Source of the DNA: a virus
Taxonomy: Duplodnaviria; Heunggongvirae; Uroviricota; Caudoviricetes
DNA: 46,907 nt
Reading direction: 5' to 3' (one strand)
IMG/VR virus record: IMGVR_UViG_2651869724_000014
How positions within the stretch are numbered: the stretch's first letter is position 1; every line of letters begins with the position of its first letter. Position numbers and translations under genes: made by a program. Shown here piece after piece: positions 18,889-42,644 of this stretch. Under the pieces are notes generated by a model. It was not told the DNA's origin and did not search any database. It was given only the letters and a program-made list of their open reading frames with translations.

Positions 18889-19605
18889 CTAAATCGCTAA
18901 CAGTTCTGTTTTCCAGTATTCACTACCACTTTTATCACAGACATGTGAATATAATATCCTATCCATAATCCTAACAATTTCTTTAACATTATTTAGCTTA
19001 TCAATAACAGTATCTTTTGAAAGATTAATTGAAGAATATGAATGGGCTAACTCCGTGCGGCTATCAGAGAAAGACTGGAGCATGAACTCATAATCTTTTT
19101 TACCTTTCGCAGTCATTGCTTTTAATATATCTTTGATACCAAATCTATTAAAAAGAAGTTTGATATTTTTTTTGGAAGGATATTTTTTATCCATTATCAG
19201 CTGTTTTGGGACAATAACAGGCTTTACAGGAGAATTAGGTGACGATAACGCCTGAAGTTTATCCTTACACTTATTTAAGTCACTCATCATTATTGACTCA
19301 GAACCATGAGAAACGTAATTTATAAAATTTTTCTCTTGGTTTTTGAATAAAGAAAACAAGATAATTTCATCAGGTAGATGCGAAAGGCATCCGTTATTTT
19401 GGTTCAGCATGTCAATCCAATCTTCCAAAACATCTTTAATATAATCTTCGAATGCAGCAGAAACTCGAAATATCGCGTTATTATAAACACTATGTATAAT
19501 ATCTGTTCTTAATTCTTTTATTTTTGAAACATAACGAACCTGTTCAAGCAAATTGGAATGAATCTGCTCGAATTGTTTTCTAGATGCGCTTTTAATATAT
19601 GCCAT
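18889..19605 (-). CDS. HEPN-type (RiboL-PSP / MAE_28990-like) putative RNase
   Basis: Predicted helical 238-aa protein with an R-x4-H motif (RTELAH) near the C-terminus. Start overlaps the DUF262 stop (TGATG). Confidence 0.7.
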   Translation of the reverse strand: MAYIKSASRKQFEQIHSNLLEQVRYVSKIKELRTDIIHSVYNNAIFRVSAAFEDYIKDVLEDWIDMLNQNNGCLSHLPDEIILFSLFKNQEKNFINYVSHGSESIMMSDLNKCKDKLQALSSPNSPVKPVIVPKQLIMDKKYPSKKNIKLLFNRFGIKDILKAMTAKGKKDYEFMLQSFSDSRTELAHSYSSINLSKDTVIDKLNNVKEIVRIMDRILYSHVCDKSGSEYWKTELLAI

Positions 19606-20720
19606 CAGTTGAAATACCGTTCAATGAAATTTTTCATTGTGCTAATACGATAATGAACCGATTGCGTCGCCGAAGTGCCAGAAGTAATCGACTCATTAAA
19701 ACGCTCCTCTGATGTTATTCTTTGAAACTCTATTAAGAAATCCTTAAGTTTTGTTGCATCAAGTTCGTTTATCATATCCTGATTAAATTTTGATACCATA
19801 AACCCGACAATTAGAGCATCAAATAAAGCAGAATTGAAATTTCTTACTTGAGGCTCTAAGTTTTCATTTAGAATTCTAAATGCTTTTTTACCAAACAATT
19901 TATTAATACAGTTTAATGCACCAAGAAATCTACTACGCCACTCCAAGGCAACATCAGGTTCAATATTTTGTTTTTCAGAACTAAAATCATTAAGGAATTT
20001 CTTTAATGGTTTTTTATATGGTGTCACAGAATATGAAAGTGCGAATGCTCTCAATATGAGTTCATTATTCTTCATTCGTGTGTCATTTTTAATTCCTGTT
20101 AAGTCTCTCCATACTTTCTCCTCACTTATTTCGTCAATCATAGTAAATAATGGACCATGATAAACTCCATGACGTACCTCCTGAGGATTTAATTGTACTG
20201 CACCTGTATTTATTCTTTCAAAAACATCAATTTTAATTTGAGGGTGAGTTTCTTTTAATATGGTTATGCATCTCAATGTGCGATTTAAAATATGCCTACG
20301 GAATCTCGCGTCCAGTGATGAAAACGAATTCCCCTCCAATTCTGGATATGCTGTCAATCCCTGTAATTCAAAACCATCCTCAATAAATAGTTTAATTGAA
20401 GTCAACCGTTGATTACCATCAATAACAGATAAACTCTCATCTTTCTCTTGGTTTAAATAAATAACAGGGATAGGACACTGGATTATTAAAGACTCAATTA
20501 ATCTTGATGCCTGCCCTCTACTCCAAACATATTTCCTTTGAAAATCAGGAATAAACACAGTACCATTTTTCAAATAGTCGACGAGTGTTGATATTGAAAA
20601 ATCGTAAGTCTCGGTATGCAATCGACGCTGCTCAGGGGGAATATCAACGATAGAAATATCATCATCATCAAATATTGGGAAAAGTTTATCCGCAAGTTTT
20701 TTGGCATCATTAACAGACAT
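19605..20720 (-). CDS. DUF262 (GmrSD N-terminal / ParB-like) protein
   Basis: IPDFQRKYVWSRGQASRLIESLIIQCPIPVIYL...VIDGNQRLTSI are the DUF262 signature blocks. No recognisable DUF1524/HNH half. Confidence 0.85.
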   Translation of the reverse strand: MSVNDAKKLADKLFPIFDDDDISIVDIPPEQRRLHTETYDFSISTLVDYLKNGTVFIPDFQRKYVWSRGQASRLIESLIIQCPIPVIYLNQEKDESLSVIDGNQRLTSIKLFIEDGFELQGLTAYPELEGNSFSSLDARFRRHILNRTLRCITILKETHPQIKIDVFERINTGAVQLNPQEVRHGVYHGPLFTMIDEISEEKVWRDLTGIKNDTRMKNNELILRAFALSYSVTPYKKPLKKFLNDFSSEKQNIEPDVALEWRSRFLGALNCINKLFGKKAFRILNENLEPQVRNFNSALFDALIVGFMVSKFNQDMINELDATKLKDFLIEFQRITSEERFNESITSGTSATQSVHYRISTMKNFIERYFN

Positions 20721-22825: not shown

Positions 22826-23191
22826 GAAACGAATCCCCAAGAAGTTATGAATATCCCTTATGTAGTACTTACATTCCTAAAGAAACACCACATACAGTGG
22901 CATCAACAGATTTTATAATCCTTTGTTTTCCTAAAAACAAGTCTAAAACTGTATAAAAACACAGTTATGATATAGTCTATTGTTTTTAATGAATAAAAAT
23001 AACTAATCGCGTTTAACGAAGAGAAACTAAAAGTTAGCCACTGCTATGAAAAAGAGCTCCTGACAGCAAATAACTTTCAGAAATCTATAGCGATCTTCAT
23101 CTTGAGAGAGGCTTGTACTTAACCCGCAAAAGGTATAGGTATATAATTATTATCAGCTTATACCAAATGGCTATCAATGATAGGAATAAAA

Positions 23192-24097
23192 ATGATTTTA
23201 GTTATAACATCTAGCTTTGATAAAACAATTGATTACATAGTAAAAAAACATAGCATTAACAATTTTTACAGGTTAGATGTTGATAATTTCTCTGAATATA
23301 AATTTTCTTACACTAAAAAAGGATTCAGTATTGTTAATAAAAATAATAATGAATTGCTCGAGAGTGAATGCAGATCCATCTATTATAGAAAACCAACTCC
23401 TGAGAATATTATCAATAAAATTGATTCAAAATATCATAATCATTGCTTTCGAGAAGTATTCGCTTTTGTTGAAGGGATTGCTGAGTCGTTTACTGGAAAA
23501 TGCTTATCCAAGCCATCAATTATAAAAAGAGCAGATAACAAAGTATTGCAAGCAAAAACTGCAATTGATATTGGATTCACAATTCCTGATTTTATATTGA
23601 CAAATAATTTCGATTGTTTCAAAAACACTTTGACAATCAATAGCATTGTCAAACCGTTATCAAGTGGATTGATAGAAAATCAGAAAGAAAAGGAATTTGT
23701 TCAAACAAATATGGTTGACATGAATAAAAACACAGAAACATTAAAATATTGTCCAGCTTATTTTCAATCGTATACAAAAAAAGAATTCGAGGTGAGATCA
23801 ACATTCATAAATGGTAAAGATTATTCGGTAAAAATAATATCTAAAAATAAAATTGACTGGAGAAAAGACAATAACGAAATATTCTATTCAACAATAAAAA
23901 TGCCTGATACTATAAAAGAAAAATGTCTGAGGTATATGTCAGTCATGAATATTTCTTTTGGATGTTTTGATTTTATAGTTTTTGATGGTGAATGGTTCTT
24001 CTTAGAGATGAATGCAAATGGTCAATGGGCATGGCTAGAAAATGAAACGAATATTAATGTGTCAAGTGAGTTAGTGAGGTTTTTAAATGAAGTATAA
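23192..24097 (+). CDS. MvdC/MvdD-type ATP-grasp ligase (RiPP macrocyclase-like)
   Basis: Blocks MILVITSSFDKT, SIYYRK, RADNKVLQAKTAIDIGFTIPDF, IDWRKD and FGCFDFIVFDGEWFFLEMNANGQWAWLE parallel the microviridin-type ATP-grasp enzymes. AGGA RBS before the ATG at 23192 (the track ORF starts at 23177). Confidence 0.8.
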   Translation: MILVITSSFDKTIDYIVKKHSINNFYRLDVDNFSEYKFSYTKKGFSIVNKNNNELLESECRSIYYRKPTPENIINKIDSKYHNHCFREVFAFVEGIAESFTGKCLSKPSIIKRADNKVLQAKTAIDIGFTIPDFILTNNFDCFKNTLTINSIVKPLSSGLIENQKEKEFVQTNMVDMNKNTETLKYCPAYFQSYTKKEFEVRSTFINGKDYSVKIISKNKIDWRKDNNEIFYSTIKMPDTIKEKCLRYMSVMNISFGCFDFIVFDGEWFFLEMNANGQWAWLENETNINVSSELVRFLNEV

Positions 24098-24941
24098 TTT
24101 CATTTACTTTATTATAAAATTATTAAACTTTTCATTATTATTCCACACATCATTAGATGAGAATTTTGATACTATTGAAAAAAGAAATGTTATTAATTCC
24201 ACGTCATTAAGAGTATCTTTATTATGTTTTCCTGTGGGGAGTAAAATAATATATTTATTAACTTTCAATAAAAAATCAAACCGTATTTTGGATAAATCTA
24301 ACTTCCAGTTTTTTACGAGCATACACTATGATACACTTTGCCCAAGAATATCGGGCACAAAAATTGAAGAATATGTCATGGCGTATAGTCAATATATTAA
24401 ATCAATTCTACCTAAAAGAAGGAAGGAACAAGAAGATTTTTTAAAGCAGCGCCTTTCCGAAAATAACGATAGTTTATCTAATCTTCAAAGTAAGATAACA
24501 CATTATACTACTATCACTATTGCCCTCACAGGGGCAGTGGTTTATCTACAAACCATTCTACCATCCGCAAATACAAATTTTGCAATAAGATTTATTTCCT
24601 ATTATTTATTTTTTATATTGCTTGTTGATATAATTAATTTATTTCTTTTTCTAAGAAAAGGAATGATGGTAAGTAGTTTTTCTCAATCAAGTTTTAAATC
24701 ATTAAAATTTGATAACAGTAATTATGCCTTAACGAAGGCTATATATCGTGACTGGATAGCAAGAAAAGATGACGTCAGATATTTTGCAGGTATAGTTAGA
24801 AATGCCGAAAAATATCTATACAGATCGATTTTAGTTGGAATCACGCTATACATGTTTTCCATTTCACTGCAATATTATAGCGATAATCCAGTGAATGAAA
24901 TCATATTCACGCCGTCAGGCATGTTTTTAGCTGTAAATTAA
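24087..24941 (+). CDS. Multi-pass membrane protein of unknown function
   Basis: GAGG RBS and an 11-nt overlap with the ligase gene. Hydrophobic segments: TTITIALTGAVVYLQTIL, FISYYLFFILLVDIINLFLFL, SILVGITLYMFSISL. Confidence 0.6.
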   Translation: MKYNFIYFIIKLLNFSLLFHTSLDENFDTIEKRNVINSTSLRVSLLCFPVGSKIIYLLTFNKKSNRILDKSNFQFFTSIHYDTLCPRISGTKIEEYVMAYSQYIKSILPKRRKEQEDFLKQRLSENNDSLSNLQSKITHYTTITIALTGAVVYLQTILPSANTNFAIRFISYYLFFILLVDIINLFLFLRKGMMVSSFSQSSFKSLKFDNSNYALTKAIYRDWIARKDDVRYFAGIVRNAEKYLYRSILVGITLYMFSISLQYYSDNPVNEIIFTPSGMFLAVN

Positions 24942-24952
24942 AAGGATATAAT

Positions 24953-25297
24953 ATGAAACCGTATACTATGCTCTATAGTGAATCTTTCGAAATAAACGCA
25001 TCAACAATTTCAAGTAAAACAAACTCTACCGTAAAAACATTTACCACAGAACCTAATGATGAAGATTATCTCAACACTTGGACAACGCATACAAGAGTCA
25101 TAGAGAACCAAGATGAGGATTACAGTTTAGCCCCCAGCAACTGTGAAAGAAAATACGAAATATCTAATGAAAAGCAGTCTGCTATGGATACATTTTTTAC
25201 AGAATCTATTGAAAATAATGATGATGATTTTATAGTATGTAGAACATTTGTAACAAATGTCGTTGAATCAGGTGATGATGATTTCTATTTTAACTAA
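24953..25297 (+). CDS. 114-aa acidic protein with four T-[FW]-x-T...D-[DE]-D-[FY] repeats (candidate multi-core precursor)
   Basis: AAGGA RBS. Repeats: TFTTEPNDEDY, TWTTHTRVIENQDEDY, TFFTESIENNDDDF, TFVTNVVESGDDDF. Confidence 0.65.
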   Translation: MKPYTMLYSESFEINASTISSKTNSTVKTFTTEPNDEDYLNTWTTHTRVIENQDEDYSLAPSNCERKYEISNEKQSAMDTFFTESIENNDDDFIVCRTFVTNVVESGDDDFYFN

Positions 25298-30412: not shown

Positions 30413-31933
30413 ATGATTAGTGAAATCACAACAAATGGCACTAAAATTAAACTAAGAAATAATAGTGCTAATGATATTAATATTTATGATATGGATTCTT
30501 TATCTTTACTTATTGGTATAAATGGTTCAGGGAAGACAAAATCCTTATGTAGCATAATTAACTATTTCTTTCCTAAAAATAACATGCAATTAACAGGCGA
30601 TTGTACAATATTAAACTCTAGCGGTGAAAGAATAGATCATACTGAAATTAGAAACTGGGGAGTTATATATTTCACCCCATTACCATTTAGACCAAAGTTG
30701 AATATTAGAGATAGTAGGTTTATTAACGCATCTCCAAGCTTGAATGGAAAAAATACTGTATTTGACCTTATCGAATACAAGGATTTAATATCTGACTTTG
30801 ATATTTATCCAAAAGTTGTTGCCATGAAGATGACAAACATTAGCAAAGTTGCAAGATTAATACTTAATATCGCTTTAAATAATAAAGATCTTAATCAGAA
30901 CAGCATACTACTGAATCACGGTCTCCTTGATATTTTGTCATTACGTGCAAAAATTGATGATAATATAGATAATGACGATTCAGACACTATAAAATATAGT
31001 ACCAATAAAAATATTCAAGCAGAAATTGATTCTATTATGCAGCGTTGCTCCGCGCATCTGATTGATGAAATACTTCATCGCGCAGGTGAAGAAAAACTCT
31101 TTTCCATATTTAGCATAATAGATTGGGCAAGTACAAAAAAACAGTTCAGTGATAACGTAGTAATTCCATTATTAAACAAACACTTAAATTTAAACATCCG
31201 TTCAAATAGAAAACTCAGAGAGACTAAATTATATTTAGAATGTGAAAGCAAAATAGATAGTTTACTTAATATTATAAAATATGAGGTAAAAAACCATGAA
31301 ATCATAAAGGATTCAAGACTTAATGAATCAACTTTAAGGTTAGAATTCGAAATAGACCCTTACGAAGGACAAAGGTTATTAACAAGATACAATTTGAATG
31401 ATATTTTTAAAATTGATTTTTCTGATATGAGTTCTGGGCAAATTGCTATTCTAGCTCAAATTGGCGCCATCTCTGACTCTATTACTAAACTGTCAGATAG
31501 AGGTATCAGATCAATACTACTATTAATAGATGAAGGGGACGCTTTTTTACATATCGATTGGCAAAGGAAATATATTTCTAATTTAAATAAAATGCTAGGC
31601 TCATTAAAAACATCTCTGGGCATAGATAATTTACAACTTATTCTAGCCTCGCACTCTCCATTGTTAGCCACAGACGTTCCCAAAGACTTTATAACTAGAC
31701 TACCAATTGAAAATGCTACGTTAAGTGGTTTTGCATCTCCTCTTTATATTTTACTAAATGAATCTTTTGGAACTAAAACCATTGGAGAATTTGCAACAAA
31801 TAAAATTGAAACCATCATCGACAAAATACCTAATAGAATACTGACTGAAAAAGATTATTACCTTATAAATAATATAGACAACCCTCTAATAAAAAGCGAA
31901 ATCGAACGCTTAATTATGCAGCATAAGGATTGA
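30413..31933 (+). CDS. Septu PtuA-like ABC/AAA_15-type ATPase
   Basis: Walker A GINGSGKT, signature MSSGQ, Walker B LLLIDEGDAFLH and an H-loop ASHSP. Confidence 0.8.
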   Translation: MISEITTNGTKIKLRNNSANDINIYDMDSLSLLIGINGSGKTKSLCSIINYFFPKNNMQLTGDCTILNSSGERIDHTEIRNWGVIYFTPLPFRPKLNIRDSRFINASPSLNGKNTVFDLIEYKDLISDFDIYPKVVAMKMTNISKVARLILNIALNNKDLNQNSILLNHGLLDILSLRAKIDDNIDNDDSDTIKYSTNKNIQAEIDSIMQRCSAHLIDEILHRAGEEKLFSIFSIIDWASTKKQFSDNVVIPLLNKHLNLNIRSNRKLRETKLYLECESKIDSLLNIIKYEVKNHEIIKDSRLNESTLRLEFEIDPYEGQRLLTRYNLNDIFKIDFSDMSSGQIAILAQIGAISDSITKLSDRGIRSILLLIDEGDAFLHIDWQRKYISNLNKMLGSLKTSLGIDNLQLILASHSPLLATDVPKDFITRLPIENATLSGFASPLYILLNESFGTKTIGEFATNKIETIIDKIPNRILTEKDYYLINNIDNPLIKSEIERLIMQHKD

Positions 31934-31945
31934 AGGTCTTCATAT

Positions 31946-32878
31946 ATGATTATTTCAATTAAAAACAACTGGGAAAAAGCAATAAAATTACATACACATT
32001 ATTTAAATAATTTGATATGCAACTTTTTAAATAAATCCATTCCTAGTTCTGAAGGACGAGACGAAGCTAAAAAATTTATTCTAGATGTGCATCACCTATT
32101 AATACTTGCCGGTAAACAAGATATATTGGAGAGTATTGATATATATAGAGAGTACAAACACAGATTGTCAATAACGCCGGATATATCGAAGCAATTCGAC
32201 AAAGAAATAAGATCTATTTTTAATTACAATAAGTTTGTTAGGAAAACAGGATCATGGAATGCATATACTCTATGTAAAAAATCAATAAGCAGAACATGTC
32301 CGTATTGCAATCAAGCATATGCTTTTTCGATACAAAAAAAGAATCGCGGTTTTCGTCCTACATTAGATCATTTTTATAGTAAGGATGACTTTCCTCACCT
32401 TGCATTGGTAATTAACAATTTAATCCCAAGTTGTAGTTCATGTAACTCAAGCCTTAAAGGCACAATTGATTTCTTCGCAAATGAACATTTAAACCCACTG
32501 TGGGATGATGAAGTTATAAATTTCGTTTTAACTCATGAGGATGGTGTTTTAACATTAATAGACGGAATGATTTCATCACCAGAAAAAATAAAAATAAACA
32601 TATCTTACGATACTACAAATATTTCAATTAAAAACACAGTAAATACTTTTTTGATAAACGAAAGATATCAAGAAATGACAATAGAAGCAATAGAATTTGC
32701 AACTGCCAAATTAAATCTTGAATATGCCGTATCTACTGGAATATCATATTTCAAAAATAACTCAGAAAGTAGTATATTAAGATTTGACAAAAGAGAATAT
32801 AAAAAATATTTGCTCGGTAAATTATATTTAGATATATATAATAAAATGCCAAATGCAAATATAGTTAACACTCGTTAA
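31946..32878 (+). CDS. Septu PtuB-like HNH nuclease
   Basis: CPYCNQAY...LDHFYSKDDFPHLALVINNLIPSCSSCNSSLKG. 13 nt after the ATPase gene. Confidence 0.75.
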   Translation: MIISIKNNWEKAIKLHTHYLNNLICNFLNKSIPSSEGRDEAKKFILDVHHLLILAGKQDILESIDIYREYKHRLSITPDISKQFDKEIRSIFNYNKFVRKTGSWNAYTLCKKSISRTCPYCNQAYAFSIQKKNRGFRPTLDHFYSKDDFPHLALVINNLIPSCSSCNSSLKGTIDFFANEHLNPLWDDEVINFVLTHEDGVLTLIDGMISSPEKIKINISYDTTNISIKNTVNTFLINERYQEMTIEAIEFATAKLNLEYAVSTGISYFKNNSESSILRFDKREYKKYLLGKLYLDIYNKMPNANIVNTR

Positions 32879-33925: not shown

Positions 33926-34414
33926 ATGGAGGAAGTAAGAGTGGAAGCAACAGGTATCGTATTTTTAGTAGTGCTCTTCGTCATTATCATGACCGCAGCG
34001 GATATACAAAAGAAAAAACACTACAACAGCTTCACGGAAGTTCTGGACGGCGACATTCTTTCGTATGAATGCCAGCAGACAGGTATTGTAATTGATACTC
34101 AAAAACATACTGTCCGTATTTTCAATAAAGATAAAGACAGCACATATACTTTTGATCAAATTCGAGAAATAAATTATACGCTTTCAGAGGGGGGTAAGTT
34201 TTATGGCAATGGAACATTACGAGGTATGAATAATGCGGCTATTGCTAACTGGAGAGAACAACTTTCAGCTAATAAACGGTCTGGCCTAAATATTTTAACC
34301 GATGATATTAAAAATCCCATGTGGAAAGTTAATGTCCCCTTGAAAAATAAAAGCACTTCAAATCACGAACTTTGCGAGCGATGGATGCTGGTATTTAAAA
34401 AGTATGTTTTCTGA
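33926..34414 (+). CDS. Hypothetical N-terminally membrane-anchored protein
   Basis: TM segment GIVFLVVLFVIIMTAA. No family recognised. Confidence 0.5.
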   Translation: MEEVRVEATGIVFLVVLFVIIMTAADIQKKKHYNSFTEVLDGDILSYECQQTGIVIDTQKHTVRIFNKDKDSTYTFDQIREINYTLSEGGKFYGNGTLRGMNNAAIANWREQLSANKRSGLNILTDDIKNPMWKVNVPLKNKSTSNHELCERWMLVFKKYVF

Positions 34415-34445
34415 GTCTCACCTTTCATCTATTTATGGAACAAAA

Positions 34446-34823
34446 ATGAAAAAATTATTACTTGCTATTTTTATCATATTACCACTTGGTGGCTGTACCG
34501 TTCATGGTAATAAATCCCTAACTGATGAAAATCATCAGACGGTTAAAGTTAAAATCGTCAATGGAAAAACAACCCAACAAGAAATTCTTGCTGCCTTGGG
34601 AGAGCCTCAGACACGCGCTACGAATGATGGACAGGAGATGTGGAACTACTCAAGTATGACGGGAGAAAGCCAACTATCTAACTACATACCGGGCCTTGCT
34701 CTGTTGACCAATAGCAGCACGGCACACATTAAATCACTGGATATCTGGTTTAAGGGTGATGTTGTGGAACGTTATGATTTTCGTCAGACCGCAAGTAAGA
34801 CTTCTCGCGGTTTGATGGATTAA
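34446..34823 (+). CDS. SmpA/OmlA (BamE-like) lipoprotein
   Basis: MKKLLLAIFIILPLGG|C, followed by the GKTTQQEILAALGEPQ block typical of the BamE fold. Confidence 0.65.
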   Translation: MKKLLLAIFIILPLGGCTVHGNKSLTDENHQTVKVKIVNGKTTQQEILAALGEPQTRATNDGQEMWNYSSMTGESQLSNYIPGLALLTNSSTAHIKSLDIWFKGDVVERYDFRQTASKTSRGLMD

Positions 34824-34907
34824 AAATACTATTACCATCATAACGTATTATGCGTTAATTATATATTCAGGAGTTAGACACTAACTCCTGCATTAAGTAA
34901 TCCTATT

Positions 34908-35930
34908 TTAATTCCCTGTTATTATTTTGCTTAGAATTTCGTCAATATATTCGGTTGTAACTATAAACGCATTTTTACCAATCTCACTTCGAAATATTTG
35001 GCATTCATCACTATGAAATTTACTAATGAAAAAATCAAATGAACACTGTGCTATAGCCTTATTAATACCATCCACGTTTGGTTTATCTTCTGGATTTGGC
35101 GTTGCATAAAGTAGCGAATATGAATCTAATGGAATATATATACATTTTAAATCATCATTACTTTCATAGAATGGCTTAAACTTTCGTTCCCCAGACACTT
35201 CAAAGATTACAATACTATCTCCTAAAATCAAAGATTGATTTGTTTTCAATACTTTGTAATGCATATTCTTATAAATATTACTTTTCTTATCCTCAGATGA
35301 AACCAAAACATCTAACTGAACCTTTTTTACTATTTCAGGTATTTTTGATATTATTTCTTGCTCAAACTTCGGAACTAATGTTGATAGCATCTTTTCTGCA
35401 GCATTTGGTAGCCATAATTGAACGTTATCAAAAAACATGGAGTTATATTGCTCATGTAGACTTGCTGGTATTGGTAGTTTATTTAACTCATTTTGAAGTA
35501 ATTCTTTGATTGTTTTTGGATTTCTTTGGAAATAATCAATAAGAGTTTCCTTGTCTAGCAATCTGTTTTTTAATTGCTCACCAAAATATGCCCATGAATC
35601 TATCATGTTTTCTCTTAAGTTTTTTGTTCTAATCTCCATATGATAAATAAACTCGGCTAAATCTTTCCTGTTGTCTAGGTTGTAAGTCCCATCGACTAAA
35701 CTATTAAGTATGCGTGAATAACTGTATGTTTCGTTTTCTGTTATTTTTTTATCAACGCTTGAATCGCCATAGTGAGAATAAAACTTGTTTTCCAAACCAA
35801 TATTCTCTACTATCATGTTTTCCTTGAAACAATCTTTTCTATACCAGTTAGTAAAATACTTCCCATTTTTTTCGTTAGAAAAACCTCTTTGTAAAAAACG
35901 TGGAATAAAATGTTGCCTATTCCCTGCCAT
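34908..35930 (-). CDS. DUF4238-family protein
   Basis: N-terminal MAGNRQHFIPRFLQRGFS (DUF4238 signature H-[FY]-[IV]-P-x-F-x-L-x-x-F). GAGGAG RBS before the ATG at 35930. Confidence 0.75.
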   Translation of the reverse strand: MAGNRQHFIPRFLQRGFSNEKNGKYFTNWYRKDCFKENMIVENIGLENKFYSHYGDSSVDKKITENETYSYSRILNSLVDGTYNLDNRKDLAEFIYHMEIRTKNLRENMIDSWAYFGEQLKNRLLDKETLIDYFQRNPKTIKELLQNELNKLPIPASLHEQYNSMFFDNVQLWLPNAAEKMLSTLVPKFEQEIISKIPEIVKKVQLDVLVSSEDKKSNIYKNMHYKVLKTNQSLILGDSIVIFEVSGERKFKPFYESNDDLKCIYIPLDSYSLLYATPNPEDKPNVDGINKAIAQCSFDFFISKFHSDECQIFRSEIGKNAFIVTTEYIDEILSKIITGN

Positions 35931-35978
35931 TATCTTCTCCTCATAGCAAATAAATATGGACAATATATTACCAACATT

Positions 35979-36119
35979 CTAACTATCATCAATGATTAAA
36001 ACAGAGGAACAAAAGGATTCTCTCTCAGCGAATGGGAACAATGGAACAGCAGCGGTTTCTTCGTAATCGGACTGAAACCGTAGTATTGCATCGGAACAAA
36101 AAATTAACTTACCTTCCAT
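35979..36119 (-). CDS. Small 46-aa ORF between the 128-aa gene and the DUF4238 gene
   Basis: AGGAGGAGG about 8 nt upstream of the ATG. Peptide: MEGKLIFCSDAILRFQSDYEETAAVPLFPFAERESFCSSVLIIDDS. Hand-found, below the track cut-off. Confidence 0.35.
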   Translation of the reverse strand: MEGKLIFCSDAILRFQSDYEETAAVPLFPFAERESFCSSVLIIDDS

Positions 36120-36174
36120 CGCTCATCCTCCTCCTGTAGTTATCAGACTAAATATTTTACCAGAACATAGGTTG

Positions 36175-36561
36175 TTATCGCATTTTGATTTTTACTGATT
36201 CATATTCGTTGATGTGATCCTTAAAAGTGCTTATTGCTTTTAGCAATGACCTGTTAAGTAAACCATTAATCTCCTGTGATGTTTTCCCGTTTCTGACGAC
36301 CACTATATATCCAAGAGTCAGATCTTGTCTTATCATTGGATTCAATGGCTCTATACCTATGCTAATCCCCGTGTTTTTGTATTTAGCAACCGGATACCCA
36401 ACTGAACTATGGATAACAATATTGCCGCTATCTGCAAGCCTTGATAACATTCTGTCGCTGTATATCGTTTTTCTTAAATCCTGTAAAACAGGGATATAGT
36501 GTTTATCCATGTTTCCTGTCAAAGCTGTAGGCAAGTAGATTTTTGTTTTTATTTTTCGCAT
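36175..36561 (-). CDS. Hypothetical protein, first gene of the DUF4238 operon (128 aa; an alternative ATG at 36597 gives 140 aa)
   Basis: AGGA RBS before the ATG at 36561. No family recognised. Confidence 0.55.
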   Translation of the reverse strand: MRKIKTKIYLPTALTGNMDKHYIPVLQDLRKTIYSDRMLSRLADSGNIVIHSSVGYPVAKYKNTGISIGIEPLNPMIRQDLTLGYIVVVRNGKTSQEINGLLNRSLLKAISTFKDHINEYESVKIKMR

Positions 36562-36644
36562 GATATTTTTCCTGTTATTGTTTTTATTTAATACCATGCA
36601 ACTAATAATAATATCAAAAATATTTATTATATTTTATAGGTGTT

Positions 36645-36913
36645 TTATAACATCTGTGATTTTATAGTTTCTTCACTCATCTGTGTGAGTTCTGAAACCA
36701 GACGAATATAAATATTTTTCAACCTGTCTTTATCACAACGACGTACAGACTCTGATAACAGATAATGACTATAATTATTGACACAAATGTTGTTGCCGTT
36801 TTCAATAGTTAATTTCAATCCAAGTTCTGTATCTTCTACTTTTTTATAATACAGATCATAAATGGTGTTTTATCATGTGGATGGAAGAGTGTGATCATTT
36901 TGATATTGTTCAT
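36645..36913 (-). pseudogene. Possible frameshifted small gene (about 88 codons)
   Basis: MNNIKMITLFHPHDKTPFMICIIKK* continues in another frame as YKKVEDTELGLKLTIENGNNICVNNYSHYLLSESVRRCDKDRLKNIYIRLVSELTQMSEETIKSQML. The frame switches at an A/T homopolymer near 36838-36846. Confidence 0.3.
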
Positions 36914-37020
36914 TATATTTTTCTTTTATTATTTTATTACTACTTAATACTCTATCGTAAGTGTAAAAATCAAATATATCTGTGTTTTCCTCATGCTTTT
37001 ACTTATTATTTTTAAACTAC

Positions 37021-37318
37021 TTTTTGAAAAAATCTTTATCTCTGTGCTGACGCACGGCTACGCCCTGACACTGATATTTTTATTTTATTCATCTCCTGTC
37101 TTTTAAATAAAAAGAAAAGTACTCGATCATTGTTTGATCTCTTTTCCTCATGATGCTGAATTTAGATCCTATGTTTAAACATAGTTTTTCCCTTTAGACA
37201 TATAGCATTTGCTCTTAAACGTATAGGAAAACTATATCTTTGATAGCAGCACTTCGTGATTGTTGCGAACAATCACTCTGCTGAACAGGGCTTGTTCCTG
37301 TTAATGATGGATTTTTCA
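37021..37318. repeat. Non-coding repeat unit, copy 1
   Basis: Shares with 37497-37808 a GC-rich box (37042-37076), a palindrome (37169-37184), a promoter-like block and two hairpins (37247-37283, 37285-37301). Confidence 0.8.
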
Positions 37319-37496
37319 ATTAATGATTTTTTCCATATAAATTACTGCCTGTAATCAATTACAAGCGTTTTAAGTATGAAGATAGTTATATGTGTCACCT
37401 TCATGCTTCCAACGTCTTAGCAAGCTTCCTGTGCGGTTTATTAACAGCTTATAGAAAACTATTACTTATATTTATTCTTACCTGATACATTCAATT

Positions 37497-37808
37497 ATTT
37501 TTTTGAAAATACATACATTGTGCTGGCGCACGGCTACGCCCCTGATACTGGTATAAAAATATTTTCCTTGTTCATCTATAATGCATTAATGTTTTATCAG
37601 TGAAAAATAAATAGATCAGTATAAAGATTATTCCCTCCACCGAGTTAGAACTCAGATCTTATGCTTGAATATAACATCTTCCCTCTGACATATAGCATTT
37701 GCTCTTAAACACATAGGAAAACTATATCCTTAGTAGCAGCACTTCGTGATTGTTGCCAACAATCACTTTGCTGGACAGGGCTTGCCCCTGTTAATGATGG
37801 ATTTATCC
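37497..37808. repeat. Non-coding repeat unit, copy 2
   Basis: GC-rich box at 37518-37554. The block from 37681 onward is near-identical to copy 1. Hairpins at 37737-37773 and 37775-37791. Confidence 0.8.
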
Positions 37809-37875
37809 AAAAAAAGATCGCGTCGAAGACGCATATAAATTAAAAGGAATATTAATTAAGCTCTCACACTTAAAG

Positions 37876-37912
37876 CAGCGGTTCGTGATTGTTCGAAACA
37901 ATCACTTCGCTG
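37876..37912. repeat. Third copy of the 37-nt interrupted hairpin
   Basis: cagcg-gttc-gtgattgtt-cga-aacaatcac-tt-cgctg. The inner 9-bp stem is identical to copies 1 and 2, and the outer stem carries a compensatory A-T to G-C change. Confidence 0.75.
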
Positions 37913-38060
37913 ATAGCAGTTATTAAGGAATACAATGCCCCCTGTAAAACCACTAAAACATAACGCAAAAGTAAAGCTGGACTCTCTTAACTTCTTACTA
38001 ATTATTTAATTATAAGCATAGTCCCGGACCAGTAAAATCGCGGCTTCACAACTTTTTTTC

Positions 38061-38144
38061 CTATGTTCGAACATAGCAAACTCCTATGTTCAAACATAGA
38101 TCCGTCCTATGTTCGAACATAGCAAGATCTATGTTCGAACATAG
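38061..38144. promoter_or_regulatory. Array of four 16-bp palindromes CTATGTT(C/T)(G/A)AACATAG upstream of the winged-helix gene
   Basis: Sites at 38061-38076, 38084-38099, 38107-38122 and 38129-38144 (spacing 23, 23 and 22 bp). A fifth site lies at 37169-37184. Confidence 0.7.
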
Positions 38145-38268
38145 TTTTTTTAACATATAACATTGTCATAAGAATATACTTTCTATTTTATTTATAGTTC
38201 TACTATTGACTTTCACTTTTTTGCATAGTATTAAAATAGATATAACAAAAATAATAAGAGGGAATAAT

Positions 38269-39003
38269 ATGAATACACCAGATGCTGATCTATTACACTT
38301 ATTTGAATCATTAACTACCGAGCAAAAGATTGATATCGCAAGACGCTTACTACAAAACAAAGAAATAAAATCAACGACAGTTATTTCTTCTGAGGAAGAT
38401 AAAGCTATTTCGTTTTCACAACCTTATGTATTTGCTTTTACTTCCAACTTTCGTGTGTTCTCTGATCTTGACATATCCAAGAATGAATTCCGTGTATTAA
38501 CCTATATTTTGGAGTATATGGAGTTTGGAAATCTGATCAATCTTTCACAATCATCGCTGTGTAAAGCACTGAATATCGCCTCCGGTAATATGTCTAACAT
38601 TTTTAAAAAACTCAGACAGAAAGGAATACTTGTAGAGCATCATGGTCATCTCTATATCAACTCTAACATTTTCGCAAAAGGGATGAGTCATCAACTGGAT
38701 CAGAAACGTAAAGAACAGTTGAGCAACGCTCGCAATCTTTGCGCAGAAATAGAACAGTATCCAGAAAGTTATTCAGCTATGTCAAAAAGTGAAAGAAGAA
38801 CCCTATCCTTAGAAACTGAGACCAAAGAAATCTATACTGACGCATTTGTTTTCAGTAAGAAGAAAAAGAATAACGCTGTTCCTAATCCCAATAACAGCAT
38901 ACATATTGATAAACCACGAAAAGTATATAAAAGAACAAAGGAAAACGAGGAAGCAAGGAGGAACTCTGTTGACGCAGACTCTCATATGCAGAAAGTATCC
39001 TGA
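38269..39003 (+). CDS. Winged-helix DNA-binding protein (RepL/MarR-like; candidate replication/maintenance regulator)
   Basis: KNEFRVLTYILEYMEFGNLINLSQSSLCKALNIASGNMSNIFKKLRQKGILVEH. The ATG at 38269 has an upstream GAGGG. Confidence 0.65.
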   Translation: MNTPDADLLHLFESLTTEQKIDIARRLLQNKEIKSTTVISSEEDKAISFSQPYVFAFTSNFRVFSDLDISKNEFRVLTYILEYMEFGNLINLSQSSLCKALNIASGNMSNIFKKLRQKGILVEHHGHLYINSNIFAKGMSHQLDQKRKEQLSNARNLCAEIEQYPESYSAMSKSERRTLSLETETKEIYTDAFVFSKKKKNNAVPNPNNSIHIDKPRKVYKRTKENEEARRNSVDADSHMQKVS

Positions 39004-41933: not shown

Positions 41934-42644
41934 ATGTATTTATCAATAAGCAAAGTTAAAGATGAATTGTTGAAAGATGAACAACCAGTATTCTTCTTTG
42001 ATACGTGTTCAATATTAGATATATTAAATTCTATCCATTTACATGGATTGTCAGACTCTTATGCAAACAACATGCTTGAACTTATCAAAATTAACGGTAC
42101 GTCTTGTTGGTTAGTTTCCTGCCAAAACGTTAACGAGGAGTGGATTGATAATATTGATGCTGTTCTTTCCACTATGGATAAAGAAATAAAAAAACTAGAT
42201 CGTAGTATAAGTTCGACAATTAACGTGACCAACTTAGTCTTAAATACAAATTATTCTATGCCACCGAAATTTTCAGGCCTCAATATATCTAGTAAAATAA
42301 AGTCCTTATCAGAACATTTTCTAAAATCTTGTCAGTGTATTGAAAGGACTAATGATCATACGCTGAAAGCAATGCAAAGAGTTCGAAAACTTGAAGCACC
42401 AGCAAGGAAAGGAAAACTTGAGCCAAAAGATTGTGAAATTGTTGAATGCTTTTTAGAATTCTGTCAAGAACTAAGGAAGGCAGGTTTTAATGAAAAAATA
42501 ATATTCGTTACTGCAAATAAAGAAGATTTTGGCTCATACAATGCTCTAAAACCACCACTTGATATTCAATTTGCATCTCATCAAGCACTATTAATCAATA
42601 GTGTAGAACATGTACTTGCACTAGCGAAAAGACAGATAAAATAA
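41934..42644 (+). CDS. PIN-like (DUF4935-type) putative nuclease
   Basis: Acidic quartet in the PIN order: FFFDTCSILD, NVNEEW, PKDCEIVECF, FVTANKEDF. Confidence 0.55.
   Translation: MYLSISKVKDELLKDEQPVFFFDTCSILDILNSIHLHGLSDSYANNMLELIKINGTSCWLVSCQNVNEEWIDNIDAVLSTMDKEIKKLDRSISSTINVTNLVLNTNYSMPPKFSGLNISSKIKSLSEHFLKSCQCIERTNDHTLKAMQRVRKLEAPARKGKLEPKDCEIVECFLEFCQELRKAGFNEKIIFVTANKEDFGSYNALKPPLDIQFASHQALLINSVEHVLALAKRQIK

Follow-up and report, generated by a model that had tools for sequence, protein, structure and literature searches.

The DUF4238 block and its setting

The virus record IMGVR_UViG_2651869724_000014 (Duplodnaviria; Heunggongvirae; Uroviricota; Caudoviricetes) is a stretch of 46,907 nucleotides, hereafter the window, which carries between positions 34,908 and 36,644 a minus-strand gene for a 340-aa protein of the DUF4238 family and, upstream of it, a 46-codon open reading frame (ORF) and a gene for a protein of 128 or 140 aa, separated by gaps of only 48 and 55 nt. 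The first-pass annotation, made from the letters alone, had described these three reading frames, the ribosome-binding sites of the 46-codon ORF and the DUF4238 gene, the short gaps and the AT-richness of the block, all of which hold on the sequence (GC fraction 0.30-0.32 across 35001-37000; Table 1). Its joining of the three into one operon was an interpretation and not an observation, and comparison with related loci gives three unrelated pieces. We consider it likely that the block is the junction between the backbone of a mobile island, IE3, and a 1.2-kb cassette whose sole gene, DUF4238, encodes a candidate stand-alone anti-phage protein, and that the 46-codon ORF is the stump of a displaced gene.

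About 2.2 kb around the block are 99.9% identical to the chromosome of enteropathogenic Escherichia coli (EPEC) O127:H6 E2348/69 (NC_011601.1, at ~2.154 Mb), and this match, together with the tRNA-Asn, integrase, mobQ, pilV and repL genes around it, places the block within island IE3 of EPEC E2348/69, an integrative mobilisable island at tRNA-Asn of the Enterobacteriaceae-associated ROD21-like (EARL) type. Pina-Iturbe et al. 2018 (PMC6035254) list IE3 as an EARL member and demonstrate its excision by PCR. The island measures ~26 kb, carries H-NST, MobQ and type IV pilus genes, and presents in the NC_011601.1 annotation the whole set of EARL hallmarks, namely tRNA-Asn integration, a tyrosine integrase, a MobQ relaxase, a type IV pilin and H-NS-type genes. 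Its RefSeq gene order begins with tRNA-Asn, the tyrosine integrase gene, a DUF262 and HEPN pair and an ATP-grasp cluster, and continues with pilV, a type IV pilin gene, traD, a mobQ pseudogene and an AAA ATPase gene with a second gene. There follow a lipoprotein gene, a DUF4755 gene, a second lipoprotein gene of the SEN1984 type, the DUF4238 gene, the 128-aa hypothetical and a frameshifted 89-aa hypothetical, which makes a fourth co-directional gene upstream of the 128-aa gene. The island closes with repL, a PIN gene, H-NS-type genes and a DUF6387 gene, beyond which lies the core gene yeeN.

Table 1. Coordinates of the block and of other island features, in positions of the window
Feature	Position	Strand	Basis or remark
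SEN1984-family lipoprotein gene, left flank of slot	34404-34823	+	island backbone
Variable cargo cassette, ~1.2 kb	~34824-36038	.	E2348/69-specific segment
Perfect 10-bp hairpin directly after DUF4238 stop, between convergent genes	34868-34890	-
DUF4238 gene, 340 aa from ATG, begins MAGNRQHFIPRFLQRGF	34908-35930	-	ORF and Pfam PF14022
GAGGAG ribosome-binding site of DUF4238 gene	35937-35942	-	read from sequence
Promoter-like element ATGATA, 16 nt, TATATT	35962-35989	-	weak consensus match; cassette-borne
46-codon ORF, ATG start	35979-36119	-	missing from RefSeq annotation
Shine-Dalgarno site AGGAGGAGG of 46-codon ORF	36127-36135	-	7 nt upstream of ORF
Extended -10-like motif TGGTAAAAT, just past 128-aa stop codon	36154-36162	-	backbone-conserved
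128-aa (ATG at 36561) or 140-aa gene	36175-36561/36597	-	ORF
Frameshifted 89-aa gene, pseudogene in E2348/69	36645-36913	-	RefSeq 'frameshifted'
GmrSD_N/DUF262 protein (371 aa) and RiboL-PSP-type HEPN protein (238 aa)	18889-20720	-	PADLOC NsnA 5.6e-83, PD-T4-2_A 9e-44
AAA_15/AAA_21 ATPase (506 aa) and HNH protein (310 aa)	30413-32878	+	PADLOC PDC-M62A/B; weaker Septu PtuA/PtuB
PIN_12 gene	41934-42644		island IE3

A cargo slot in the island backbone

In pairwise blastn, backbone homology stops at ~34821-34843 on the left of the DUF4238 gene and returns at 36032-36039 on the right, which leaves a cassette holding DUF4238 as its only gene, ~100 nt of DNA upstream of that gene and the 10-bp hairpin past its stop codon. 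Sister islands have the same flanks, with a DUF4755 and a lipoprotein gene on the left (95-96% identical) and on the right the 128-aa and 89-aa genes followed by repL. Between these flanks, E1 and PG20180057 hold a ThsB-type TIR gene, a SIR2-STALD gene (type I Thoeris by Pfam) and a frameshifted copy of a ~320-aa gene; Nissle 1917 and GN05476 hold a gene for a 390-aa ComEA/HHH protein and an intact 320-aa gene; EC42405 holds two unknown genes (305 and 327 aa); and strain 4314 holds a DUF2971 gene with a truncated gene. Because the flanks are 90-96% conserved between islands while the contents vary, the slot bounded by the SEN1984-type lipoprotein gene and the 89/128-aa genes is, by these alignments, a cargo hotspot.

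The same borders emerge at the scale of the species. Counted over 5426 complete E. coli genomes, a query of positions 35900-36620 matched 499, and many of these matches start abruptly at query 133-140, that is at window 36032-36039, inside the 46-codon ORF. The left flank was found in 394 genomes and the DUF4238 gene in 89, always on the chromosome and at no less than 95% identity. The cassette ends bear no terminal direct or inverted repeats beyond short AT-rich chance matches, and in the absence of repeats pointing to site-specific insertion, homologous recombination in the conserved flanks would be the simplest route of exchange.

The 46-codon reading frame

The right border of the cassette runs through the 46-codon ORF, which the first-pass annotation had correctly picked out as unannotated and led by a strong Shine-Dalgarno (SD) site. 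Its first 27 codons are the 5' end of the ~320-aa gene, and codons 28-46 are cassette DNA that is in frame by chance. The product of the intact gene in Nissle (WP_000398601.1, 320 aa) starts MEGKLIFCSDAILRFQSDYDETSAVPLLSIQN and that of the ORF MEGKLIFCSDAILRFQSDYEETAAVPLF, with 25 of the first 27 residues equal; the two then diverge, homology ending at 36032-36039. The SD context is identical or near-identical before the full-length gene in E1, EC42405 and Nissle, and the extended -10-like motif upstream is kept in E2348, E1, Nissle and Salmonella (at locus L007, whose DUF4238 protein is 64% identical, it reads TAGTAAAAT). The shared N-terminus, SD site and motif assign the first 81-88 nt of the ORF to the backbone and leave ~55 nt to the cassette. 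A second such stump occurs in strain 4314, where a 98-aa ORF keeps ~77 residues of the ~320-aa gene; its truncation at another point (~codon 77) and beside a different cargo, DUF2971, makes it an independent breakpoint. Copies of the ~320-aa gene (L003:3119-4081 in Nissle 1917, L002:3134-4089 and L010:9043-10026) encode a product with no Pfam, PADLOC or PHROG match. The gene borders the hotspot, with cargo of various kinds (Thoeris, a ComEA-like gene) downstream of it, and is frameshifted in some strains and cut at differing points in others.

The two parts of the ORF have also fared differently. Between E2348/69 and Salmonella, codons 28-46 have accumulated six non-synonymous changes and one synonymous change, and codons 1-27 one non-synonymous and two synonymous changes, small counts that nevertheless both point one way. 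At L007, a 37-nt indel shifts the frame after residue 29 and yields a product of 53 aa with an unrelated tail, and the DUF4238 loci of Pectobacterium and Brenneria have no such small ORF. As judged from these alignments, the 3' half of the ORF is not conserved as a protein, and the ORF as a whole is a recombination scar, chimeric across the right junction, rather than a hidden micro-protein.

It is conceivable that the scar has since found a use, and that the stub was co-opted as a translated leader, an upstream ORF whose translation adjusts how the DUF4238 gene, 48 nt further down, is transcribed or translated. The strong SD site and the ATG are kept, a conserved extended -10-like motif lies upstream, the 3' end of the stub overlaps the promoter-like element in front of DUF4238, and the frame is open despite its unconstrained 3' half wherever a DUF4238-bearing locus of this kind was examined, including at full 46-codon length in E. 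coli 90-9281, E. coli 1604D011 and Salmonella. The kept features, however, are those inherited from the 320-aa gene and are common to islands without DUF4238, whereas the 3' half varies in both length and sequence (46 versus 53 codons, in another frame) and the more distant DUF4238 loci do without the ORF. We give such a leader role a slim chance.

Backbone genes and neighbours of DUF4238

The 128-aa gene tells a similar story of the backbone. As the first-pass annotation had it, the 128/140-aa product belongs to no recognisable family, without significant match in Pfam, NCBIfam, PADLOC or PHROG. Its homologues, which share 59-98% identity among the full-length matches, are found in Escherichia, Salmonella and Citrobacter and outnumber the E2348/69-type DUF4238 allele, and in sister islands the gene accompanies Thoeris, DUF2971 and other cargo. 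In Brenneria (L018:5187-5870) and Pectobacterium (L009 and L017), a single 228-aa protein covers both the 89-aa and the 128-aa proteins of E. coli: the intact 89-aa protein is 58% identical to residues 1-88 of the Brenneria protein, and the 128-aa protein 48% identical to residues 131-219. The two E. coli genes are thus the N- and C-terminal halves of a single gene, and the EARL backbone has undergone either a fission of this gene or a fusion of its halves. The 128-aa gene is missing beside DUF4238 homologues outside the EARL island family (Pectobacterium, Yersinia and other loci). By these comparisons it is part of the island backbone, paired with the 89-aa gene and not with DUF4238.

The wider neighbourhoods of the subfamily were surveyed at 87 loci across bacteria (among L005-L097), with crude ORF calling. 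Clustering of the neighbours found no family common to more than five of the 87 loci, and those five are all EARL-type islands; among 127 upstream proteins, no Pfam or PADLOC family occurred more than four times. The commonest upstream families are Mrr_cat, N6_Mtase, phage CI repressors, AAA_15/AAA_21 ATPases (GajA- or AriA-like), KAP NTPases, PifA and components of MADS, giving contexts that include Mrr, restriction-modification, Gabija- or PARIS-like ATPases and PifA. In P2-like prophages of Yersinia and another enterobacterium, the DUF4238 gene sits on the border of the phage block beside the CI repressor gene, and at one locus it lies beside a large helicase gene and ThsB-TIR genes. The upstream neighbour shares the strand of DUF4238 in 69 of 83 loci but the downstream one in only 43 of 84, and DUF4238 genes tend to close a co-directional string, a position that may reflect reliance on upstream promoters. 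So far as these neighbourhoods tell, the DUF4238 gene has no conserved, and apparently no obligatory, partner. At four Pseudomonas loci (L043, L052, L056 and L065), a gene for a ~396-aa protein with a C-terminal Mrr-type endonuclease domain occurs upstream of DUF4238, directly so in three and three ORFs away in the fourth, and may form with it a lineage-specific two-gene arrangement.

These surveys bear directly on the suggestion of the first-pass annotation that a large effector preceded by two small partners makes up a toxin-antitoxin or abortive infection (Abi) module, in which the 128-aa protein and the 46-aa peptide would control a toxic DUF4238 protein. Co-directional ORFs, short gaps and the strong SD site of the small ORF fit such an operon, as do the layout retained in the E. 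coli and Salmonella loci with the E2348/69-type allele and the mostly co-directional upstream neighbours of DUF4238. The homologous loci, when checked for the upstream genes and for conservation of the small ORF, gave the opposite answer: the 128-aa gene, one part of a divided backbone gene, accompanies Thoeris, DUF2971 or unknown cargo in place of DUF4238 and is missing from DUF4238 loci outside the islands, the small ORF takes its first 27 codons from another gene with a remainder unconserved as protein, and a distant DUF4238 protein functions alone (PMC9122126). On the comparative side, the toxin-antitoxin or Abi proposal is thus already contradicted, and we regard it as very improbable.

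The DUF4238 protein

The assignment of the 340-aa product to DUF4238 is secure, with a match to Pfam PF14022 of 48.2 bits against a cut-off of 27 (E=1.3e-12) in which residues 5-287 align to positions 1-248 of the 281-position profile. Homologues share the N-terminus M-[AS]-G-K-R-Q-H-F-I-P, which confirms the start codon. The family motif H-F/H-[IL]-[PS]-x-x-[YF]-L-x-x-F is present as QHFIPRFLQRGF and the R-T-x-x-x-R helix motif as HMEIRTKNLR. Among 66 subfamily representatives, the invariant residues are H7, P10, F17, E67, R101, G237, D238 and P267, all eight of which are present in E2348/69, and His97, Arg106 and Lys202 are near-invariant. The gene is intact and under purifying selection (ratio of non-synonymous to synonymous substitution rates, dN/dS, of 0.16-0.37). 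Its AlphaFold2 model has a predicted local distance difference test score (pLDDT) of 87.9. The DUF4238 profile found no real match among sequences of the Protein Data Bank (best E 0.06), and a Foldseek search of BFVD returned only one uncharacterised protein, of Stenotrophomonas phage Smp131; the predicted fold would be one without a solved relative.

The subfamily is large: a HMMER scan found 1,179 clusters (at 50% identity) related to the protein at E<=0.001, and among the best 150 matches listed nearly all are single-domain proteins of ~320-370 aa aligned over their full length. A tblastn search of a plasmid collection gave two matches only, one in a 4.8-Mb E. coli record and one on a Euhalothece plasmid. 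The checks with PADLOC, NCBIfam and PHROGs returned nothing significant for any of the three products of the block, and no DUF4238 mechanism is reported in the literature searched.

The first-pass annotation had suggested that DUF4238 recurs in the neighbourhood of defence islands, which proves correct and indeed understated. One DUF4238 gene, taken from a hotspot in a P2-like prophage of E. coli TA007 and cloned as pFR101, confers strong T7 resistance on its own (Rousset et al. 2022; PMC9122126), a DUF4238 domain is also part of a validated E. coli TIR defence system (PMC11350192), and the very slot occupied by DUF4238 in IE3 holds Thoeris in sister islands. Aligned by hhalign, the profile of the 66 representatives matches the Rousset protein with 96.6% probability (E=4.9e-10) over a stretch that takes in the H-x-x-[PS] motif, the conserved Glu and the R-T-x-x-x-R motif. 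By analogy, the E2348/69 protein would be a divergent candidate member of a single-gene defence family.

Interpretation

Taken together, these observations suggest the following course of events. A cassette would have been exchanged into the hotspot that the SEN1984-type lipoprotein gene and the 89/128-aa genes enclose, likely by recombination within or near the conserved flanks, and the exchange would have removed the ~320-aa backbone gene except for its first 27 codons. The promoter-like motif, strong SD site, ATG and 27 codons of the displaced gene would now read into cassette DNA, yielding the 46-codon chimera. The DUF4238 protein may be a self-contained anti-phage protein, like the distant T7-blocking DUF4238 protein, and may act through a conserved polar site composed of His7, Glu67, Arg101 and Asp238 together with the near-invariant His97, Arg106 and Lys202.

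Transcription of the DUF4238 gene could start at the promoter-like element of the cassette, at the TGGTAAAAT motif of the backbone with passage through the stub, or at the two sites alike. The cassette element lies ~35 nt upstream of the DUF4238 start, with the end of the 46-codon ORF over it, and a TATA-type motif is found at the equal position in L007 and Pectobacterium. The TGGTAAAAT motif may serve as the promoter of the ~320-aa gene or of its stub; a simple scan did not call it, there being no -35 match. Downstream, the hairpin after the stop codon folds with an energy of -15 kcal/mol (z=-3.4), a stability reached by none of 200 shuffled sequences, and looks like a terminator, albeit one without a clean U-tract.

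Several findings pull the other way and temper our confidence in this reading. Since DUF4238 mostly follows a gene on its own strand, transcription together with varied upstream genes may play a part. In all five E. coli and Salmonella DUF4238 loci examined, the small ORF is unbroken, which permits the leader role considered above. A sigma-70 consensus scan gave matches no more numerous than in shuffled sequence, leaving the promoter assignments weak. The kinship with the Rousset protein is distant as well: the hhalign match is confined to the ~112 N-terminal residues, the two proteins have no significant BLASTP match, the PADLOC model DUF4238-Pers misses the E2348/69 protein even at E<=10 (it finds the Rousset protein at 2.5e-217), and the subfamily has an LGD[SC] motif where the Rousset protein has SDNP, a pairing made by eye without an alignment. 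Finally, tblastn of phage records gave no match to the subfamily at E<=1e-5.

The last of these points lend some weight to the idea that the subfamily shares only an ancestral domain with the anti-phage protein and serves mobile elements in another accessory role, be it competition between elements, island maintenance or interaction with the host. Such a role would sit well with homology at the profile level only, with a differing motif in the C-terminal half, with deposited phages that show no subfamily member, and with EARL islands that also bear virulence-type cargo such as TcpC. It is less easily squared with Thoeris in the equivalent slot of sister islands, with members that adjoin the CI repressor gene at the phage-block edge of P2-like prophages, with others beside TIR, restriction-modification and Mrr genes, or with the DUF4238 domain of the validated TIR system. 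We grant this alternative a small though real chance, and favour a candidate stand-alone anti-phage gene carried by an exchanged cassette.

More tentatively, and as a possibility that we would not yet lean on, EARL islands might hold previously undescribed hotspots for defence cargo, in which a conserved promoter-like motif, a strong SD site and the start of a backbone gene make up a fixed platform for repeated cargo, and the LGD[SC] branch of DUF4238 might be an anti-phage protein in its own right, distinct in specificity or activity. If true, a fixed platform with repeated recombination would explain the survival of stubs of different length.

The analysis removes a false lead, in that the SD-led 46-codon ORF reads as a scar and the "small partners" fall outside any toxin-antitoxin system, and it places a gene of unannotated function from a prototype EPEC strain in a family with one validated anti-phage member. 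With its 1,179 clusters and its escape from the PADLOC model, this branch would be under-counted in defence censuses. The locus itself is an ordinary, cleanly resolved case; what it still offers is a view of undescribed EARL hotspots and of a sizeable DUF4238 branch that the PADLOC model misses.

Other features of the island

Beside the island integrase, the DUF262 and HEPN genes, of which the first overlaps the start of the second by one base, are probably a PD-T4-2-like defence pair. The AAA and HNH pair fills a second variable slot, from mobQ to the lipoprotein gene, which in other islands holds TcpC with TIR and macro genes, or DUF3800 or DUF2971 genes. Between these two pairs, a block of 29% GC on the plus strand (23177-25297) carries an MvdD-type ATP-grasp gene followed by two genes without a family match, and could be a small peptide-modification cassette, likewise island cargo.

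The long intergenic stretch between the 89-aa pseudogene and repL (36914-38205) is rich in repeats. Four tandem palindromic units of ~23 bp (TCCTATGTTCGAACATAG) lie directly upstream of repL at 38059-38147, with two further copies farther off; a duplication of 160 nt has its copies 490 nt apart (37158-37317 and 37648-37807); and a palindrome-containing repeat of 40 nt occurs three times, at 37245, 37735 and 37874. By its appearance, the stretch could be where the island has its iterons or its origin. An Rfam scan of 34700-38300 found no family.

Comparison with known systems

Among known systems, the closest in identity are the EARL islands themselves, since IE3 is the very element described by Pina-Iturbe et al. 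2018. So far as a term search of that article (PMC6035254) can tell, neither the cargo slot nor the DUF4238 gene is described in it, and in the literature searched ROD21 and defence systems come together only in a 2020 review of xenogeneic silencers.

The likeness to type II toxin-antitoxin and Abi modules is one of superficial layout only, with small co-directional ORFs upstream of a larger protein in an AT-rich mobile element. Unlike in such modules, no partner co-occurs with DUF4238 across homologous loci, the small ORF is a gene fragment, and toxin-antitoxin and Abi families gave no match to any product of the block.

The resemblance to the DUF4238 system of Rousset et al. goes further. 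Both proteins belong to PF14022, both are encoded by stand-alone genes for ~310-340 aa that act as swappable cargo in a small mobile-element hotspot, and both have the N-terminal H-x-x-[PS]-x-x-[YF]-L-x-x-F motif, the conserved Glu and the I/E-R-T-x-x-x-R motif. They differ in their carriers, the E2348/69 gene residing on an EARL island and the Rousset gene on a P2 prophage.

The slot, in turn, recalls the hotspots of P2 and P4 elements (Rousset et al. 2022) and those of the Pseudomonas island PAPI-1, where defence hotspots on genomic islands are known (PMC12629846). Like them, it is a short locus (1-4 kb) of high turnover between two conserved genes and accommodates alternative defence systems, here DUF4238 and Thoeris, with Septu-like or TIR/TcpC cargo in the second EARL slot. 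What sets the EARL slot apart is its carrier, a ROD21-like island at tRNA-Asn, and the position of its breakpoints, which lie inside a backbone gene and leave behind stubs of varied length.

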